Below, one piece after another: positions 3,886 through 32,151 of a stretch of DNA of 32,151 nucleotides; within the stretch, counting starts at the first letter, position 1, and each line of letters starts with the position of its first letter. The stretch is from contig NIVC01004890.1 in NCBI GenBank assembly GCA_002269645.1, positions 1 to 32,151 of the forward strand. The letters run 5' to 3'. Under the pieces are notes generated by a model. It was not told the origin of the DNA. It saw only the letters and a list, made by a program, of their open reading frames with translations, and made no database searches. A program made the translations under genes and the position numbers. Origin of the DNA: Macrostomum lignano (lineage: Eukaryota).

Positions 3886-4269
3886 ACTCCAATTTTTGCT
3901 TACTTCTATCATAACTAATACCTTTACCCTCTACCTTTAACTTTTAACATATACAAACAACACGTCAGTTTTAGTATATTGAGATACGTTTGAAACTATT
4001 ATCCATGATACAAAAATCAAATGTCTTGTGCTAGTAGTGCTACTAGCTTTAGTAGGTAGTAATACCTGCTGTAAAGGGAAGTGTTTTTTGTTTTACTTAG
4101 TCTAATTTCACTAACAAAATCTGTCTTCTCCGAGACTTGAAGCTACGTCATACCCCACCCCAATCACAGCCAATAGGAAATGAGGAAATATATAGACCTA
4201 TTCCTATCCAAGCAGCCATTCAGAGCTGTGGCCATCTTGGTGTGTGGCCATCTTGGTCATGCGCCAATA

Positions 4270-4890
4270 TATATTACAATAAAAAAGACTAATATGTAGA
4301 TGTAGCAATATTTAACATTAGTACACAAAACTAAACACAAACAACTGCATAATCTTAGCCTAAATACACAAAACTAAACACAAACAACTGCATAATCTTA
4401 GCCGTTGTCTATATATTATAGACAAACAAGATTATGCAGTTGTTTGTGTTTAGTTTTGTGTACTAATGTTAAATATTGGAATTAGCCTAAGATTATGCAG
4501 TTGTTTGTGTTTAGTTTTGTGTACTAACATACATGCGCAACAGTCGGCCGAGTCGGCCGATCCGGCCGACCGATTTGGCGGCCAATCAAGGAAGTCGCAA
4601 AAATGCCCACCCAAAAAATAACCTGAAGAGTAGTACTAAGTAGCTGACGAGGCATTTTAGCTTAATAAAACAGTCATAGTTACTCCTGCCGTTTACCCAA
4701 AGTTGCGTTAATTTTGCTTTCGGGTTTTTTTATATGTAAGTCGCATTTTTGGCCAAAAACTACGTCGCATTTTTGTTAAAACTAAGTCGCACGGCTGACC
4801 GAATTTTGGAGGTTGCACATGTATGTGTACTAATGTTAAATATTGCTACATCTACATATTAGTATTTTTTATTGTAATTTATATATTGCA
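4270..4890. repeat. AT-rich foldback (inverted repeat) structure interrupted by a MITE
   Basis: About 4270-4325 is the reverse complement of about 4826-4890. The unit tacacaaaactaaacacaaacaactgcataatctt occurs twice on each strand between 4320 and 4525. Confidence 0.75.
4528..4825. mobile_element. Non-autonomous hAT-type MITE, 298 bp
   Basis: 14-bp TIRs CATACATGCGCAAC / GTTGCACATGTATG (13/14 match); 8-bp TSD TGTACTAA at 4520-4527 and 4826-4833. Confidence 0.85.
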
Positions 4891-12471: not shown

Positions 12472-15400
12472 ATGAACGAAAGCAGCCGCAGCAGTAGCGA
12501 GATGATCAACAGGCTTTTTAGCCAGTTCGGCATTCCATTTGTCAAAGATCGAACTGGCTGCAGCTTGGCCGCCTGCGGCACCGCCGTGTGCCAGCAGGCG
12601 CTCAGCCGACGTCGGTTGAGTTCGCGCAGAGTCATGGAGAGAGCGACAGCCGGTCGGAGTCGAGTCGACAGGAAGAGACGCTTCCGCTTGGGAGGCGCCA
12701 GCGCGGGGAGCAGCGAAGTGGCGTGCGCGGTGTGCGAAGACGAGGCCTCCGGCTGGCACTACGGTGCAGTCACCTGCGACAGGTGAGCCACTGTCATTTC
12801 CTTCCTCTTTTGATGTTGAAAACTTTAATTTCGAGAATGTATCCAGATAAAAGTGCCTTTTATGATTTAGAGTTGGCCTTTTACAAAAAGTTGCATTACC
12901 GAGACATGAAGCTTGAAGGCTTTACAATAAATCAGTGTATACTGTAATGATTCTCAAACTTAGCTCAAAATGCGCCCATGTGTCTCAACAGTTGCAAGTC
13001 ATTCTTCGAGCGGTCGGTAAAAGACCGGCACATCTATGACTGCCACTTCAATCGAGACTGCGACCTGCGACTGCAGAGGAGAAACCACTGTCAGGGCTGC
13101 AGGTGGGACAGGTGTCTCGATGCCGGAATGATTGTCAGCGGTAAGTGAGGCTCAGTGAGTTCTTCCATTGCACAGGCTTCTATTTGGATTCACTAATTTT
13201 TACCCGCTCGTATTCTTAATCGAATTTGCAGCCGTCTGCAAGATCCGCGCTCTTGGGAATGACATCGAGACTGATGCACATCCGCATCTTGTAAGATCCT
13301 CTGCCAATCGTTCGTTCGACCTCGTTTGCATTTTACTCATTTTATTCAGCACATCGCAGTACGTTTTTATATGGTTCATATAAAAGCTGCAATGAACCTA
13401 ACCTGTAAAATTCTACTCCCCGAGGTCTGGTACGCTTACTCCCCGAGGTCTGGTACGCTTACTCCCCGAGGCCTAGTACGCTTACTCCCCGAGGCCTAGT
13501 ACGCTTACTCCCCGAGGTCTAGTACGCTTACTCCCCGAAGCCTAGTACGCTTACTCCCCGAGGTCTAGTACGCTTACTCCCCGAGGCCTAGTACGCTTAC
13601 TCCCCGAGGCCTAGTACGCTTACTCCCCAAGGTCTAGTACGCTTACCCCTCGAGGTCTAGTAGCATGCAGATTTTCTCCTGAGGTTCTGAGGTCGCGGAG
13701 ATTTTTGAGTCATGAAGGCATTAGTCTCAGTCTATCTGCGACACCTTAAGATAACCCCTCTCCCCACCGCAGAGGCACCGGCACTGGACTCGCCTGGAAG
13801 CTGAGGACATGCTCCGTATGGCGGACCAGTCCTCAAACCTGGCCGTGACGCCGCGTCCATCGCTACCCAGCCCGACAGACACCGAAAATAGCCAGTACGA
13901 TGAATTCTGGGAAGATGAAGCCGGCAATTGGACCGCTCTCAACGACAGCCAACCGCGCCAGGAGTCCATGCCCATTAGCGTTGAACTAGTGCGCAACGCT
14001 CTGATCCCGCTTGACGCGCCTGAGACTCTGGCGGCTCGACTCACCGACCTGGAGCGGTCCTGTCTGGCCACTCTGTTCCGGTGGAACAAGCGCCGTTTGG
14101 AGCACCGGTCGGACAATTCAAACGGAAACTTTGGCGCGGCTGCAGCCAATTGGGCGCCTATTTTGTTGGCCTCCGCGGCGCGTCAATTCTTGGCAAGTTG
14201 CCTAATCCTACCAACTGAGTCGGGAAAGTTGCTTACAGTCGCTTTAGTCGATCGACTTAAATGGCTGCTGCGAGGACGGGAGTTCGAATTCGAACCGCTT
14301 CTAGATCAGTTTGGTAAGTTTCCAAGATTTGCTTTTCGGTGTTGGTCTAGATTCAGCTAGAACCAGGCTAAAGACACTCAATGAATTAAGCCATGACCTG
14401 GCCATAGACACTCAATGAATTAAGCTAGGCCATAGACACTCAATGAATTAAGCTATGACCTGGCCATAGACACTCAATGAATTAAGCTATGACTGGTCAT
14501 AGACACTTAATGCATTCAGTTATGGCCTGGTCATAGATACTCAATGCATTCAGCTATGACCTGGCCATAGACACTCAATGAATTCAGCTATGGCCTGACC
14601 ATAGACAATGCATTCAGTTATGGCCTGGTCATAGATACTCAATGCATTCAGCTATGGTCTGGCCATAGACACTCAATGCATTCAGCTATGATCCGGCCAT
14701 AGACACCTCAAGGAATTAAGCTATGATGTGGCCATAGACACTCAATGCATTCAGCTATGATCCGGCCATAGACACCTCAAGGAATTAAGCTATGATGTGG
14801 CCATAGACACTCAATACATTCAGCTATGATCCGGCCATAGACACCTCAAGGAATTAAGCTATGATCTGGCCATAGACACTCAATGAATTCAGCTATGGCC
14901 TGACCATAGACAATGCATTCAGTTATGGCCTGGTCATAGATACTCAATGCATTCAGCTATGGTCTGGCCATAGACACTCAATGCATTCAGCTATGATCCG
15001 GCCATAGACACCTCAAGGAATTAAGCTATGATGTGGCCATAGACACTCAATGCATTCAGCTATGATCCGGCCATAGACACCTCAAGGAATTAAGCTATGA
15101 TGTGGCCATAGACACTCAATGCATTCAGCTATGATCCGGCCATAGACACCTCAAGGAATTAAGCTATGATCTGGCCATAGACACTCAATGCATTCAGCTA
15201 AGGGCCTGGCCATAGACAGTAAATTTCTGTAAGTAGCTCAGTAATGGTAGGATTTCGAAATTATTTGGTAAAAAATTACTAGCTTAAAAAATTAAGCTTC
15301 TAAAATCGCTTTCACTGCAGAGAACTTGGCAAAGCAAATAGGCGAAATGTGCAATCAATTGTTGAGCACCATACAAGAGGCTAAGCGTGATGTCATTCGC

Positions 15401-16329: not shown

Positions 16330-16650
16330 AGTAGTATATACGATACAAAATACCCAGCAAACCATTCTCACCATTGCAAACAATTTAACCCTTTATCAGT
16401 GTGAAATGGCCTGTTTCCCTTCATTTTCGCTCGTCTTCACTTCGCTCAACTCGCTTCGCTCATCCTCGCTTCATTTCGGTCAAACAGGCCATTTCACACT
16501 TACAACGACTAATTCTTTTTGAATGGTGAGAACACGCTCTCGTCGCTCGCTTTGGTTTGCTGGGTATTTTGTATCGTCAACGCTTCCAACTCTCTCCAAC
16601 ACACACAAACTTTCTAGAACCCGTCGCACGCGCCGCAGGCGCGAAGGGTC
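16330..16650 (+). repeat. Left terminal region (presumed TIR) with nested internal inverted repeats
   Basis: Starts AGTAGTA. Perfect inverted arms: 16341-16364/16553-16576 (24 bp), 16365-16375/16522-16532 (11 bp), 16398-16416/16482-16500 (19 bp). True TIR length cannot be determined without the other end. Confidence 0.8.
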
Positions 16651-16667
16651 TTTTTCTGTTATAAAAA

Positions 16668-16982
16668 ATGAACCGAGTTTACACCTTTTCTGTTAGTGAT
16701 ACTTTTGAGACTGTTGCTAAAAATGCAGAGATAATAAAACAACATATTTTGAATGGAATAATTGATGAAGTTTATTTAAAATATGACGACAAGCACGACC
16801 TAAAACTTTATCCATTAGAGCTAGATGAGATGTATGATTTAGAACAAGAGGGTGAGTTAATATTTCAACTTGGAGATTATTTAAATTCGGATGATTGGGA
16901 GGTTAGATCAACAGATTCCGAATCAACAAATAGTTCATATGAAACCAGTGATTCAGAGAATGAAAGTGAAATTTTTATGTGA
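16668..16982 (+). CDS. Hypothetical acidic Polinton protein, 104 aa
   Basis: ORF with a TATAAAAA-ATG start context and an acidic Ser-rich C-terminus. Confidence 0.6.
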   Translation: MNRVYTFSVSDTFETVAKNAEIIKQHILNGIIDEVYLKYDDKHDLKLYPLELDEMYDLEQEGELIFQLGDYLNSDDWEVRSTDSESTNSSYETSDSENESEIFM

Positions 16983-16998
16983 AAAAAATATTTAAAAA

Positions 16999-17253
16999 AT
17001 GAATTATTATTCTATAACAGAAACGACTTTTATTATGAAAAATATATATAAAAAAATGAAGGTAAATCGAACCCATGGTTCGCGTGCTTTGCACGATTAC
17101 TCCTACATCGGAAATGTGCCGATTAATGAACTTAATGAAAATTTAAGTTTGATAACAGTTGAACAAATGTCAATAATAATATTAGTAACAATAATAGTAA
17201 TAATATTGTTTTTGTTTGTTATAAAAAATTTACTACCTTGTTGTCTTAAGTAA
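16999..17253 (+). CDS. Small predicted membrane protein, 84 aa
   Basis: C-terminal hydrophobic helix IIILVTIIVIILFLFVI followed by LPCCLK; AAAAA-ATG context; contains one double-hairpin copy. Confidence 0.6.
   Translation: MNYYSITETTFIMKNIYKKMKVNRTHGSRALHDYSYIGNVPINELNENLSLITVEQMSIIILVTIIVIILFLFVIKNLLPCCLK
17068..17095 (+). repeat. 28-nt double-hairpin element, copy 1
   Basis: CGAACC-cat-GGTTCG CGTGC-ttt-GCACG, flanked by AT on both sides. Confidence 0.8.
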
Positions 17254-17263
17254 CTGTTCGAAC

Positions 17264-18871
17264 TTAGTTTGCAGATAATATCTGATTCTCATAAAAAGAA
17301 CCCAATATTTCTTCACCATCCTTATCAGCAATTATATAGGTTGTAGGATTTGTATTTAAAACTTTACTGATGGTAAATTTCTCACTTATCTTCCAATATC
17401 CTTTTCTTCCTTTTTCAAACTTATCTTTCCATTTATAGATATAAACAGAATCACCAACCTTAAAACCTTTAGTTTTCTTTTTTTCAAAATCTCCAAAAGT
17501 AACCTTAACATTTTCAGGTTTGTTATAAGCTTGTTGAGGAGTCATCTTTATAGCTGAATGATATGAATTGTTATAATCTTTCACTACGTCTGGTAATATT
17601 TTTACCCATTTTTGGTTACCATTAAGACTAAACTGAAACCATAATTTCTTACCTAAAGTTCGATTAAATCTTTCTATTAATGCGTTTTTACTCTCTCCAT
17701 AAATAGAATAAATTTTATTAATATACTCCCCATTCGCGTCTTTTTTCCTTTCTTGTCCTTTTTCAAAATGATACAATTTATACATGTGAGGATTGTAAAA
17801 TTCTTTTCCTTCGTCAACACACAACCGTTCGCTTTTTTCTCCAATGCTTCTAAAAGCACTAGCAACCACCTCTCCCTTTTTGGATTTTAAAGGAACAGCC
17901 CACGCGTAGCGAGTAAAACCATCTAATATTGTTAAGATATATTTATATCCATTATCATTTGGCATTGACATTAAATCAGCATACCAAATTTCATTCTTTT
18001 TGAAGTTCATGATTTTTCTATAAAATTTAGGTTTTCGATATTCTTTATGAAGAATCTTTGCCTCATCAGAACTTAACCCACCGCCACTTAACAACAAACA
18101 CTCAACACAATTATTTCCATGTTGATTATAATTAATTCCCAAACCAAATTTAACTTTAGACTGCAAAATCTTTTTAACCATCCACCTAGTTAATCTTTGC
18201 CCTACCGATAATCCCTGCAAGTTATCTAATCCTTGAATCATTTTTTGATCGGCTTCATGTTTTAATCTTAATGCTTCCTCGGGTGTGTTCTTATCAGCAT
18301 CTCTGTATGCTAAGTCATGATAGTATGCTAACCAATCAATTCCATTTATGGGAATTGAATCGGCTTTTGGAGTGTCATCAGGATTTAATCTCAAATCTAA
18401 GCGAGTGCCGGGTAGTTTACCCTCAATCTTTCGAATGAGGCTGGAGCACACCTTAAGCGGCGATAATTACCGCCCATCTCCGTCTGCTCTCTGAACCTTC
18501 TCCTTATATTTAAAATACTTAGGAGCTTGGCTGCGCATTGCCACCGTGTCTTCAAGCTTTTTACCATCGAACCATAGGTTCGCGGACGAAGTCCGATTGG
18601 GAAGAGGAGTTACCTCTGTTCCTTCAAAAGATTTCTCAATTGAAGTGGTACTTGAAGCTGTATGACGGGTTTCACGCAATTTGGAGACATCGCCACAAAT
18701 AGTGACTAGCAAGGACATTGCCTTCCTCACTCAGGCCACGGGTTAACCTGTGAAGTTCATTGATGGTAGGTGTAGTTCCCCTGTATATTTACCAGTAGTA
18801 AAGATTGGTGGTAAGCTTGTTAATCCTTTTTGTAAGTCTAAAAACCCTCCTTCAAATACTATTTGGGTCAT
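17264..18871 (-). CDS. Phospholipase A2 (parvovirus-type/PLA2X)-retroviral-like DDE integrase fusion, split by a group I intron; join(18871..18746, 18412..17264), 424 aa after splicing
   Basis: Exon 1 MTQIVF...GELHLPSMNFTG plus exon 2 PGTRLDLRL...PINGIDWLAYYHDLAY...KHEADQKM...KVKFGLG give the PLA2 Ca-loop and HD dyad. The rve core follows: WYADL (D), LCVDEGKEF (D), ALIERFNRTL (E), then a C-terminal FKVGD..SFY SH3-like tail. Confidence 0.92.
18413..18745 (-). ncRNA. Group I intron (IC1-like, with P5abc), 333 nt, no internal endonuclease ORF
   Basis: P1: exon CAGGU pairs with IGS GCCUG (U-G wobble at the splice site). P3 UGUCUCC/GGAGAUG; P4 UGCGUG/UGCGCA; P5a CUUCAAGU-ACCA/UGGU-AAAAA-GCUUGAAG with an A-rich bulge; P5b with GAAA loop; P6 GCC/GGU; P6a CUCCU/AGGAG; P7 G(A)GAGCA/UGCUCC; P8 GGCGGU/AUCGCC; P9.0 AG/CU; P9 with GAAA loop. 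The P/Q/R/S-like blocks are AAAUUGCG, GCGCAGCCAAG, GGUUCAGAGAGCA and CUUAAGGUGUGCUCC. Excision restores NFTG-PGT. Confidence 0.93.
18568..18595 (+). repeat. 28-nt double-hairpin element, copy 2 (inside the intron P5 extension)
   Basis: CGAACC-ata-GGTTCG CGGAC-gaa-GTCCG, flanked by AT on both sides. Confidence 0.8.
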
Positions 18872-19421
18872 TTTTAATAGCCTTAAAAATACATGAAAGC
18901 ACCAATTGTTTTGCAAATTCTTCAATGGTTGGTTGCTTAACTTTTTTATAGTTATTATCTACGCTAGTTAAGTATCTTTTATTTCTCCAATTTTCAGACT
19001 TTTTAATCTGATCATCGTCTTTGTAACTAAATGAAGAAGCGGGAATGAAATGATCAATATCTAACTTTCCAGTATAATTTTTTGGAACATAATAATTTCT
19101 TGTGAAATTTAACCAATCAAAAAAGAATTCTTTTGTGCAACCAAGATAGGAGATATAATGTTTGTCATGAAAAGTTCTCAATGCCCAAGTTATTTTAGCT
19201 CTAATTAGACTAATATTTTTGAAATTTTCATCAGTGCGATATTTATTTTTTGCATATTTATTACATTTATCTTTATTGTTTATTCTCCACATAGTACATT
19301 TAACTTTCTCACAAGATCGACAAAGATTTTTAAATTTTTTTGTGTCATTTCTCCAACAAAAAAATTCTTTAGTCATCGGTTTCTCAATTTTACACGTAGT
19401 ACAAATTTTTGTTTCATCCAT
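18852..19421 (-). CDS. Free-standing HNH endonuclease with N-terminal CxxC...CxxC zinc ribbon, 189 aa
   Basis: CTTC...CRSC; YLGCTKE; LDIDHFIPASSF...NWRN...LTSVDNNYKK matches the DH..P...N...N HNH family seen in large DNA viruses and phages. Confidence 0.8.
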   Translation of the reverse strand: MDETKICTTCKIEKPMTKEFFCWRNDTKKFKNLCRSCEKVKCTMWRINNKDKCNKYAKNKYRTDENFKNISLIRAKITWALRTFHDKHYISYLGCTKEFFFDWLNFTRNYYVPKNYTGKLDIDHFIPASSFSYKDDDQIKKSENWRNKRYLTSVDNNYKKVKQPTIEEFAKQLVLSCIFKAIKNDPNSI

Positions 19422-19448
19422 TTTATAAAAAATAAATTTAACAATTAA

Positions 19449-20135
19449 TTAAACACCAGTATGTCCAGCAGCTTTCGCGGCAGCTAAAACAAGTTTTCGC
19501 GGAGTTTTAAATCCTTCACCAACAGCCGGTTTGTTATTTATAGAATTAACAATCCATTTATACAAGCTGGTATTTTTAACAGCTCCTACTCCTAAATCAT
19601 CATAAAAAATTCTAGCACTTACTAATTCATCCTTAGTATAAAAATCAGGGTTAAACTTAACCCTAGGGTTAGTAATAATTCTATATGCTCCGCCCAATTC
19701 TCTATATAGTTCATTTCGATCTTTATCAACGTTACCAATTCGATAATTATTACCTAAATCTGTCGCAGCAATACTACGTGGCGCATCTCTTGGAAATTGT
19801 TTAACTTCTTCACCCCTTTCTGCAGCCCTAATCTCTGCACGTCTAATCTCTGCAATTCTCAATTGAGCTTGATCAACATCATAAGCAGGCGGCTCATCCA
19901 AAATTTCATCCTCTTTTGGCTCAGTATTTTTAGCAATTTTTTCCAGAAGGTCTTTATCTGTTTTTTCTAGTTCACTAATTTTCCCCGTAATAGGATTAAC
20001 AAAAGGAGCAGCAAATCTTTCACCAGCTAATTGTATTCCTAACTTTCTTTTTTGTAAATTTCTAACAAAATCAGAATATCTTTGCTTCTCTTTATAAATC
20101 GCTAACTCTCCATCAACGTCCATAAATTGACTCAT
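19449..20135 (-). CDS. Hypothetical Polinton protein, 228 aa (possible core/structural protein)
   Basis: Intact ORF divergent from the MCP gene, AAAAA-ATG context; no domain recognised. Confidence 0.7.
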   Translation of the reverse strand: MSQFMDVDGELAIYKEKQRYSDFVRNLQKRKLGIQLAGERFAAPFVNPITGKISELEKTDKDLLEKIAKNTEPKEDEILDEPPAYDVDQAQLRIAEIRRAEIRAAERGEEVKQFPRDAPRSIAATDLGNNYRIGNVDKDRNELYRELGGAYRIITNPRVKFNPDFYTKDELVSARIFYDDLGVGAVKNTSLYKWIVNSINNKPAVGEGFKTPRKLVLAAAKAAGHTGV

Positions 20136-20168
20136 TTTTTAACATAAAAAACTTTTTTAACTTAAAAA

Positions 20169-31100: not shown

Positions 31101-31724
31101 GACCTTTCGTGTTTAAGTGTAATTTCGTTTGGTGTCATTTTAAGTCTTCCAGAAAACACACTTAAATTCATGTCGTAATTTCTACCAAATGCTTAAACCA
31201 AGCTTGAAATTGCTTATATTATAAAATGTTGCTAAGTATTGATTAATCTCTTCACGATCATCTCCGGTTTTATTATAAAAATATTGTACCCTCGCATTAG
31301 TAATTTCAACACATATCCGTTTGAAAGCTGGGTTTCAATAAAATCTAGACATTCTGCATTGGTTCAAATCGATAAACCCTAATAAACTCATCTAATGGTT
31401 TTTCATCCGATTTATTCGAGGTTTCCGACGTGTGGGTTTCTTTTGGTTTTTTTCTAATTCTGCTATTCTTTTTTCATATTCAGCCTTTTCTATTAATCGC
31501 TTCATTTCATATTCTGCCCTTATATTATTTGCTAATGCATTTATTTGTTGGTCTTGTATTTCTCTTTCTCTCTGCCTTTCTCTCTGTCTTTCTCTTGCTC
31601 TTTGGCGGCGTTGTTGTCTTTGGCGCTGTTCAATTTGTTCAATCTGTCTTTGTAATCGATTGAACTGTTGGCGCTCATTTGCAAGAAGTTGTCGAATCTG
31701 ATCTGGGGTCAATCTTTGTTCCAT
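28143..31724 (-). pseudogene. Protein-primed family B DNA polymerase (pPolB) with N-terminal OTU-like protease region; at least 8 apparent frameshifts or stops
   Basis: ExoI YIFDFET, ExoII AHN.SRFDSY (frameshifted), ExoIII YLQFDLISL, PolA NFDGVSLYPSAM, PolB KTLLNSLYGK, PolC YGDTDSLY. OTU-like IPSDGNCFYKC and HWHYCLI. In-frame TAA at 31193-31195. Assignment of 31392-31724 as the N-terminus is tentative. Confidence 0.9.
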
Positions 31725-31802
31725 TTTATAGAATATAATTTATATAATGTTTGAATTATTGGTTTTTTAATTTTATTTTTTATCCTGACCCACCCCAGGA
31801 GC

Positions 31803-32151
31803 CTATTCGAGATCTGCTTTTGGTAATAGCAATCCATTGCCATAACGTTTGAATTTAAGAAAATTCCTGAACCTGCTTTTGGTCTCATTTCGAGATATAA
31901 TCCGCTTCCATCATGTTTTTCAATTATGTTAAAATCTTTTCCTAATTTAGTAAAAATCTTCTGAACTGCTGGTCTAAAATTGGATCCAATATTGTCAAAA
32001 AATCCTTTAGCTTTCTCACCCGTTTTTTCTAAAGTTTGACCAAATTCTGTAGTTTATCTGCTACAACTCCACTTCCTTGGGTTGTTCCTTGTAAAAGTAA
32101 ACCATTGCCATGATTTGATCCTTTTAGTATTAACCCTTTTCCAGCTGATAA
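31803..32151 (-). pseudogene. 3' part of a frameshifted ORF with repeated GxG(L/I)xL motifs (candidate core protein)
   Basis: AGKGLIL, HGNG, QGSGV, DGSGLYL, AGSGIFL and YGNGLLL across frames. Confidence 0.45.

Follow-up and report, generated by a model that had tools for sequence, protein, structure and literature searches.

Nuclear group I introns have been described as exclusive to the ribosomal RNA (rRNA) genes of microorganisms (PMC3679873), and in a database of 42,459 introns those of animals come only from placozoans, corals, and sponges and are mostly mitochondrial (PMC11835236); here and below, published systems are described from the accessible parts of the sources cited. Polinton-like viruses of Rhodomonas lacustris, Paulinella micropora, and Desmodesmus armatus carry introns that match RF00028 (PMC12220804). 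In phages, collaborative homing couples a free-standing endonuclease to an intron without an open reading frame (ORF) (Zeng et al. 2009; Bonocora and Shub 2009; via PMC3984707 and PMC11296320), and Bodo saltans virus holds nuclease-bearing "parental" and ORF-less "offspring" group I introns (PMC5871332). We analyzed contig NIVC01004890.1, positions 1 to 32,151, a 32,151-bp stretch hereafter called the window, in which a Polinton lying behind animal nuclear-receptor exons carries a group I intron lacking an ORF in a gene that fuses phospholipase A2 (PLA2) to an integrase. Related copies in the same genome have an Eco47II-like nuclease gene in or beside the intron, and the elements are depleted of GGNCC, the word that this nuclease is predicted to recognize.

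The insert (18745-18413, minus strand, 333 nt) matched the Rfam model RF00028 at 59.7 bits in a permissive search (E 1.6e-14, 18422-18755 on the minus strand, GC 47%), above the gathering score of 50 bits; a fast whole-window scan at the gathering score gave 0 matches, the intron having been missed by the filter. The minimum free energy of the insert had a z-score of -3.29, and 0/100 shuffles were equally stable. A single minus-strand frame runs from 18871 to 17264 with stop codons confined to the insert, excision of which restores the frame of the gene. The insertion point separates the Gly codon of the PLA2 calcium loop from its Pro codon, the 5' splice site is marked by a U.G wobble in P1, and pairing helices were found for P1, P2, P2.1, P3, P4, P5abc with a GAAA L5b, P6, P7, P8, P9.0, and a GAAA-capped P9. 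The parts of the interrupted gene are as follows.

18746-18871, minus strand: exon 1 of the PLA2-integrase gene, 42 codons, ending in the Gly of the calcium-binding loop
18413-18745, minus strand: ORF-less group I intron, 333 nt, of IC1-like anatomy, identified by the RF00028 match, covariation, and intron-less alleles
18732-18750, minus strand: P1, exon CAGGU with guide GCCUG and U.G at the 5' splice site 18746/18745; identical in 59 parsed family loci
18692-18706, minus strand: P2.1 hairpin, whose loop houses an Eco47II-like ORF in a second Polinton family
18550-18657, minus strand: P5abc domain with an A-rich bulge and GAAA L5b, including a 30-nt two-hairpin module
18443-18491, minus strand: P7 (18491-18485 with 18448-18443) together with the P3 3' strand and P8
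18413, minus strand: terminal intron nucleotide A (omega-A) after P9.0; the homologous position in relatives is G
17264-18412, minus strand: exon 2, a parvovirus-type PLA2 fused to an rve integrase, 382 codons

When 16 related introns were aligned, pairing held in 98.5% of 912 cells, 18/57 pairs are changed on both sides, and 0/500 shuffles match this, against 35-51% pairing in slid-partner controls; because the 16 rows form about three lineages, the covariation count serves as support and not as a probability. The P3-P4-P6-P7 core is present and covaries, including in P7, where 4/6 pairs are changed on both sides with 100% paired; its G-binding G-C pair is kept and the next pairs are swapped relative to the relatives (G-C for C-G, C-G for U-A). 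Intron-less alleles from the same genome, three of the window's family (L061-L063) and one of the second (L068), are continuous across the Gly/Pro boundary, and an uninterrupted Gly-Pro motif occurs in 49/120 homologous proteins. The insert is a genuine group I intron, and of this we are virtually certain. P5abc and P2.1 extensions are features of subgroup IC1, and both are present here, while P9.1 and P9.2 are absent. The original prediction, made from the letters of the window, had proposed a 333-nt intron at these coordinates with this fold, a U-G wobble in P1 at 18746, and an in-frame Gly/Pro junction once the insert is removed; the covariance-model match, the helices, the compensatory changes among related copies, and the uninterrupted alleles all agree with it. 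Its name for the gene did not hold, as PLA2X denotes PLA2 plus a pX-like C-terminal domain (PMC8502044) and the PLA2 here is fused to an integrase. The 30-nt two-hairpin module of P5abc (approximately 18567-18596) occurs in some copies of each Polinton family and is cleanly missing from others, giving 333- and 303-nt forms; it is a structure-preserving indel common to the two.

A family search returned 28 further RF00028 matches in this genome (72.7-91 bits). The 11 of the 28 that were examined all sit at the same PLA2-integrase site in the second Polinton family, whose integrase is 59% identical to that of the window's family and whose capsid and ATPase are 23-29% identical, and the P2.1 loop of all 11 contains an intact or decayed ORF. 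It had been proposed that such an intron would give group I introns a route into animal nuclei; this stands for the element itself and does not extend to host genes, in which none of these 11 matches lies. Outside this genome, an intron with a nuclease occupies this site in a JGI contig (L083, Ga0224502_10072777; 80.6 bits), and the viral contig L119 (IMGVR_UViG_3300027939_000003; 35% identical) is interrupted by a group I intron at that codon boundary (52.0 bits). Like the window intron, that of L119 is missed by the default Rfam scan, so introns of this kind may be widespread and overlooked.

Several other variants were observed at the same site. A second intron type of about 323 nt occupies the same 5' site in five loci of the window's family (L064-L067 and L098; L066:223-540, minus strand), where the L066 copy scores 38.8 bits against RF00028, below the cut-off. 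It looks chimeric because its P2.1 and P5abc sequences are shared with the window intron and its core is different; joined in frame at its 3' end, the exons encode Gly-Ala rather than Gly-Pro, a sequence without GGNCC. Gly-Ala also replaces Gly-Pro in the calcium loop of four homologous PLA2-integrases (P0009, P0017, P0022, and P0027), possibly as an escape from the cut site discussed below. The called N-termini of four more (P0003, P0007, P0046, and P0080) resemble a translated intron tail or begin right at the Pro, which suggests further unrecognized introns at this site in public assemblies.

The ORFs in the P2.1 loop of the second family match PF09553 (RE_Eco47II), with 26.2 bits for L069 (cut-off 25.9) and 25.2 for L072, and a free-standing gene of the same kind, L026, scores 18.2 bits. 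Twelve Eco47II-like sequences share invariant E49, D65, E76, and K78, a PD-(D/E)XK-type set, and the AlphaFold model of the protein (pLDDT 90.8) has EcoO109I as its closest fold (Foldseek E 6e-5; VIA-align Z 9.8, rmsd 3.8, 165 aligned, next row 6.6). By family, residues, and modeled fold, the sister-copy ORF belongs to the Eco47II/EcoO109I-like PD-(D/E)XK nucleases. The Eco47II-type system recognizes GGNCC (PMC12376442) and EcoO109I recognizes RG^GNCCY (PMC3089450), and judging from sequence family and fold it is very probable that the Eco47II-like nuclease recognizes GGNCC. Of 13 homologues of this ORF in protein collections, 8 run on, as judged by eye, into what reads as the translation of a group I core. 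A link to introns is not universal in the family, since no RF00028 match was found near 10 giant-virus homologues. These lie on contigs L085-L093 and L094 (IMGVR_UViG_GVMAG-M-3300022752-26_000001), which carry distant Eco47II-like genes without an intron match, and L094 has 4 GGNCC against 32.6 expected.

In the window's family a nuclease slot lies directly upstream of the interrupted gene, and in the window itself it is filled as follows.

18852-19421, minus strand: free-standing HNH/EndoVII-like ORF, 189 aa, with its stop 106 nt from the 5' splice site (PHROGs E 0.001-0.003; Atlas lead of 0.89 to HNH)

Across 55 distinct loci of this family, the slot holds an HNH-like ORF in 41, an Eco47II-like gene in 13, and nothing in 1. 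Every free-standing Eco47II-like gene (13/13) adjoins an intron, at 106-127 nt from the splice site, and the gene was found in 13/52 intron-bearing loci versus 0/3 empty ones. The HNH-like ORF was considered as the specific partner of the intron and rejected, since it also occurs in 3/3 empty alleles of the window's family. A free-standing GIY-YIG gene occupies the same slot upstream of the intron-bearing gene of L119 (L119:2804-3142), so that three nuclease families, HNH-like, Eco47II-like, and GIY-YIG, use the position.

Codons for Gly-Pro (GGN CCN) contain GGNCC in every case, and the window element appears to have been emptied of this word. It has 0 GGNCC in 15,822 bp, while the host flank has 31 in 16,329 bp, and GGNCC is the sole zero among 16 such palindromes; CCNGG, GCNGC, and CGNCG are not purged. 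Composition models predict 7-17 occurrences and codon shuffles a mean of 11.7, with 0/1000 shuffles as low, and the element encodes 0 Gly-Pro dipeptides against 6.6 expected. Pooled over 67 distinct loci (201,585 bp), 10 GGNCC were found against 221 expected, counts that are not independent, as genomic copies are related and recombine. Those 10 comprise the empty insertion site itself in each of the 4 intron-less alleles (4/4), 3 occurrences at the end of one locus, 1 upstream in L068, and 2 in decayed copies; in two empty elements, over stretches of 5.4 and 7.2 kb, the insertion site is the sole GGNCC. Both intron-bearing Polinton families show a complete purge. Controls were public contigs rather than other Polinton families of this genome: 167 versus 182 expected in IMG/VR contigs (18/18 viral loci) and 437 versus 536 in genome-collection loci (the 25 of 57 that reach at least 4 kb). 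The intron-less PLA2-integrase contigs L120 and L130 have normal observed/expected values of 16/15.2 and 29/31.7, whereas the intron-bearing L119 has 0/6.4. Across the 120 homologous proteins Gly-Pro occurs 16 times against 79.8, a figure on which we do not rely because aligned positions are not independent.

We consider it likely that the intron masks the last unavoidable GGNCC of the element and spreads by collaborative homing in a conflict over a short-site nuclease. The Eco47II-like nuclease would cut GGNCC, perhaps with flank preferences, and a five-base cutter could act as a single-site homing nuclease because the element genome is small (15-20 kb) and purged. Empty elements sharing a cell with a nuclease-bearing element would be cut at the empty site and then lost or repaired from an intron-bearing template, and the intron would therefore spread. 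Collaborative homing would come first, with a composite mobile intron arising once the nuclease gene had entered the intron. The intron would stand in as immunity for a methylase, so that none would be needed; no methylase family was found among 24 scanned window ORFs, where the right end of the element is off the contig and several ORFs are without a family. Self-removal of the ribozyme from mRNA would keep up production of the PLA2-integrase. The window copy may have lost its nuclease or never had one, remaining passively protected, and it would splice with a 3'-terminal A, which probably lowers the efficiency or calls for help from a protein.

Several points weigh against this model. Cutting and splicing are both read from sequence and from structure models, and a search of 4/4 public runs found no spliced joint and did find unspliced junction contigs (contigs only, with their RNA status guessed). 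The finding of the Eco47II-like gene in 0/3 empty alleles comes from too small a sample for significance, the window's own HNH-like slot gene, being also in empty alleles, is not tied to the intron, and the relatedness of the copies tempers the pooled GGNCC counts. The purge also occurs apart from the nuclease: L119 (0 GGNCC vs 6.4 expected) has the intron with a GIY-YIG gene and no Eco47II-like match, L135 (0 vs 4.2) has no PLA2 or nuclease match, and L127 (3 vs 13.8) has no visible cause. A five-base cutter would, moreover, cut host DNA, given the 31 sites in the 16-kb flank. The enzyme would have to act in a lytic or episomal phase, be limited to a compartment, or need flanking bases; chlorovirus restriction enzymes degrade host DNA.

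The 3' junction of the window intron was found at 103 genomic places, a number that overstates insertion events because many host genes appear in triplicate; a hand count of the 100 listed gave 77 with a terminal A and 23 with a terminal G, and in the second family 8/8 parsed introns end in G, with 3 of the 11 unparsed. The window intron, with A at 18413, thus lacks the terminal omega-G. Because a published A-ending exception exists, ND5-717 of hexacoral mitochondria, which is spliced in vivo (PMC6545197), the A end lowers the claim of canonical self-splicing and leaves the group I class intact. A pattern search for an intron-less allele with the window-type exon 1 gave 5 matches, fewer than the 8 of the control pattern, and no match fell where an element is known to lie.

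One alternative keeps the DNA-level conflict and holds that A-ending copies no longer splice usefully, so that the intron only masks the cut site; integrase would then come from an internal ATG or in trans, and PLA2 from G-ending or empty copies. It draws on the replacement of a near-universal G by omega-A, on the missing spliced joint, on the broken polymerase of the window copy, and on the ATG at 18241 in exon 2, which could yield integrase alone as a 325-aa ORF with the whole rve core. Among A-ending copies, however, pN/pS is 0.22 in exon 1 and 0.07 in the PLA2 part (0.27 and 0.06 in G-ending copies), which is purifying selection on both exons as estimated from sequence; these values are no proof of splicing and are not independent, because the copies are related and recombine. 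The P7 strands are unchanged in 59/59 parsed family loci, A-ending copies are the majority, and ND5-717 offers a precedent. We regard this alternative as unlikely, though it deserves to be kept in mind, and on balance lean toward useful splicing of the A-ending copies.

A second alternative is that the nuclease is an ordinary long-site homing endonuclease, that GGNCC was lost from another cause, for instance a restriction system belonging to a helper giant virus, to a former host, or to the host itself, and that the intron simply sits at a conserved codon, as group I introns do. The PD-(D/E)XK homing endonuclease I-Ssp6803I does have a 17-bp site (PMC3424549), L119 and L135 are purged without an Eco47II-like nuclease, and the giant-virus contigs with distant nuclease homologues are poor in several palindromes. 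Yet sequence family and fold each point, independently, to exactly the word that is missing, the words CCNGG, GCNGC, and CGNCG have stayed, and the purge is complete in two families as far apart as their capsids and ATPases indicate. This alternative seems improbable to us.

The element and its surroundings bear on a last alternative, and their main features are listed here.

12472-14360, plus strand: host nuclear-receptor exons, with C4 zinc fingers split by a GT-AG intron (PF00105 at 12472-12783 and 12993-13139)
16330-32151, strand not assigned: Polinton, whose left end is AGTAGT and which runs off the contig, with no GGNCC anywhere
20169-21641, within the Polinton: putative major capsid, a weak match (E 2e-4 to a PF21738 protein)
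21693-22454, within the Polinton: A32 ATPase (PF04665, over the cut-off)
28143-31171, within the Polinton: protein-primed DNA polymerase B (pPolB) in several pieces (PF03175 E 4.7e-19, passing the Pfam cut-off)

Putative penton, protease, and fibre genes are also present, and the rve integrase matches PF00665 at E 4.9e-7, slightly below the cut-off, with the 120 listed homologues mostly carrying PF00665. Protein-primed PolB and a retroviral-type integrase, both expected of a Polinton, occur together, and the predicted placement of the intron in a protein gene of a Polinton holds. The motif AGTAGT, which we take to be the Polinton terminal motif, lies at 16330 within a minisatellite behind the nuclear-receptor exons, and the right end is beyond the contig. 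Those exons, with GT-AG introns, flank the element and support the animal host that had been claimed; the 764-Mb genome also holds Antp-class homeoboxes, which we read as Hox1- and Hox3-type and hence presumably bilaterian. That the elements derive from a co-sequenced protist or free virus rather than from animal chromosomes is hardly credible: the contig does end inside the element, with the right end off it, and relatives occur in environmental metagenomes, but the left end abuts that minisatellite on the same contig, copies lie deep inside many long contigs with different flanks, and 20/23 listed runs under one organism label, from 7 studies, contain at least half of the searched words. IMG/VR scans with the ATPase and polymerase of the element returned no relatives.

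Further features were seen in the window and the genome. A fibre-like ORF of the Polinton (23931-25595) combines tandem repeats of 19 aa and a domain of the F5/8 type C (discoidin) kind. In host DNA, an intron-less 2OG-Fe(II) oxygenase gene (PF13640; 7132-7908, minus strand) may be a horizontal acquisition or a retrocopy, and near-perfect inverted repeats clustered at 4267-4884 possibly represent a foldback or MITE-type element. Several other pPolB families exist in the same genome, where scoring of 91 candidates gave 119 matches.

The presence of well-preserved group I introns in protein-coding genes within an animal nucleus makes ribozyme splicing testable on RNA polymerase II-type transcripts in animal cells, along with the A-ending mode, for which natural A and G alleles exist. 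The nuclease link offers a clean test case for the origin of homing endonucleases from restriction enzymes, as well as indirect evidence of Polintons competing as replicating viruses. A bolder version, which we put forward tentatively and as rather finely balanced, is that across hundreds of Polinton proviruses in a probably bilaterian animal nucleus a ribozyme and a methylase-free five-base restriction enzyme form a new selfish unit: the virus would purge its whole genome of GGNCC, a splicing intron tolerant of an A end would hide the site forced by an essential Gly-Pro, and the enzyme would destroy rivals (possibly also host or helper-virus DNA) and drive intron spread. If true, this would be a case of a restriction enzyme becoming a homing endonuclease because its targets were purged, in which the free-standing and the intron-embedded stage are found together.

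In the literature consulted, mostly open access and without supplements, we found no group I intron in an animal Polinton, no Eco47II-like intron nuclease, and no GGNCC purge; the accessible parts of PMC11131425, PMC8502044, 10.1101/2023.08.22.554363, PMC11296320, PMC9240083, and 10.64898/2026.10.13.758929 mention no such intron or nuclease, and tables S11-S12 of PMC12220804 and the PMC11835236 database may contain relevant entries. The original claim that the intron is without precedent is upheld for the animal host and falls for Polinton-type elements, in which group I introns have been published for protist Polinton-like viruses (PMC12220804). What appears to be new here is the animal nuclear host for Polinton group I introns and the link between nuclease and GGNCC; introns of protist Polinton-like viruses and masking introns of giant viruses were already known. 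The original prediction had overlooked the terminal A as well as the nuclease and the avoidance of GGNCC, the two most unusual features of the case.

The introns of protist Polinton-like viruses resemble that of the window in being ORF-less, in their length of 300-380 nt, and in interrupting a protein gene of a Polinton-type element that is integrated into a nuclear genome. They differ in having protist hosts, in lying in a short unannotated ORF upstream of the capsid gene, and in resting on an Rfam scan only, and the accessible text of PMC12220804 reports no empty alleles, nuclease link, or site purge for them. Nuclear IC1 introns of rRNA genes in eukaryotic microbes (PMC3679873) have in common with these introns the P/Q/R/S motifs, P2.1, P5abc, the nuclear location, and a nuclease gene in a peripheral loop, whereas the window intron is in an animal protein gene, ends in A, and is without P9.1/P9.2. 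ND5-717 is likewise animal and A-ending, and is spliced correctly in vivo at low efficiency (PMC6545197); unlike the Polinton copies, in which A and G ends coexist, it is mitochondrial, obligatory, and non-bilaterian.

Eco47II and EcoO109I (both type II) and I-Ssp6803I share sequence family or fold with the sister-copy nuclease, and the GGNCC core fits the empty insertion site (PMC3424549, PMC12376442, PMC3089450). Unlike Eco47II and EcoO109I, the nuclease lies in or beside a eukaryotic viral intron, with no methylase partner seen in the window-ORF scan, and a 2012 survey, in the part available, gave PF09553 as bacterial. In Bodo saltans virus, as proposed here, introns mask nuclease targets in essential genes and interference competition between related viruses has been suggested (PMC5871332), though that system is a giant virus of a protist with HNH and GIY-YIG nucleases and is not integrated in an animal genome. 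Phage collaborative homing is similar in its nuclease gene beside an ORF-less intron, its target at the insertion site, and its proposed role as precursor of a composite mobile intron. In the Polintons, by comparison, the nuclease is of a type II restriction family and the element is apparently purged of the short site; with the nuclease free-standing in one family and embedded in P2.1 in the other, both stages of the pathway described in phages (PMC3984707) coexist in one animal genome.

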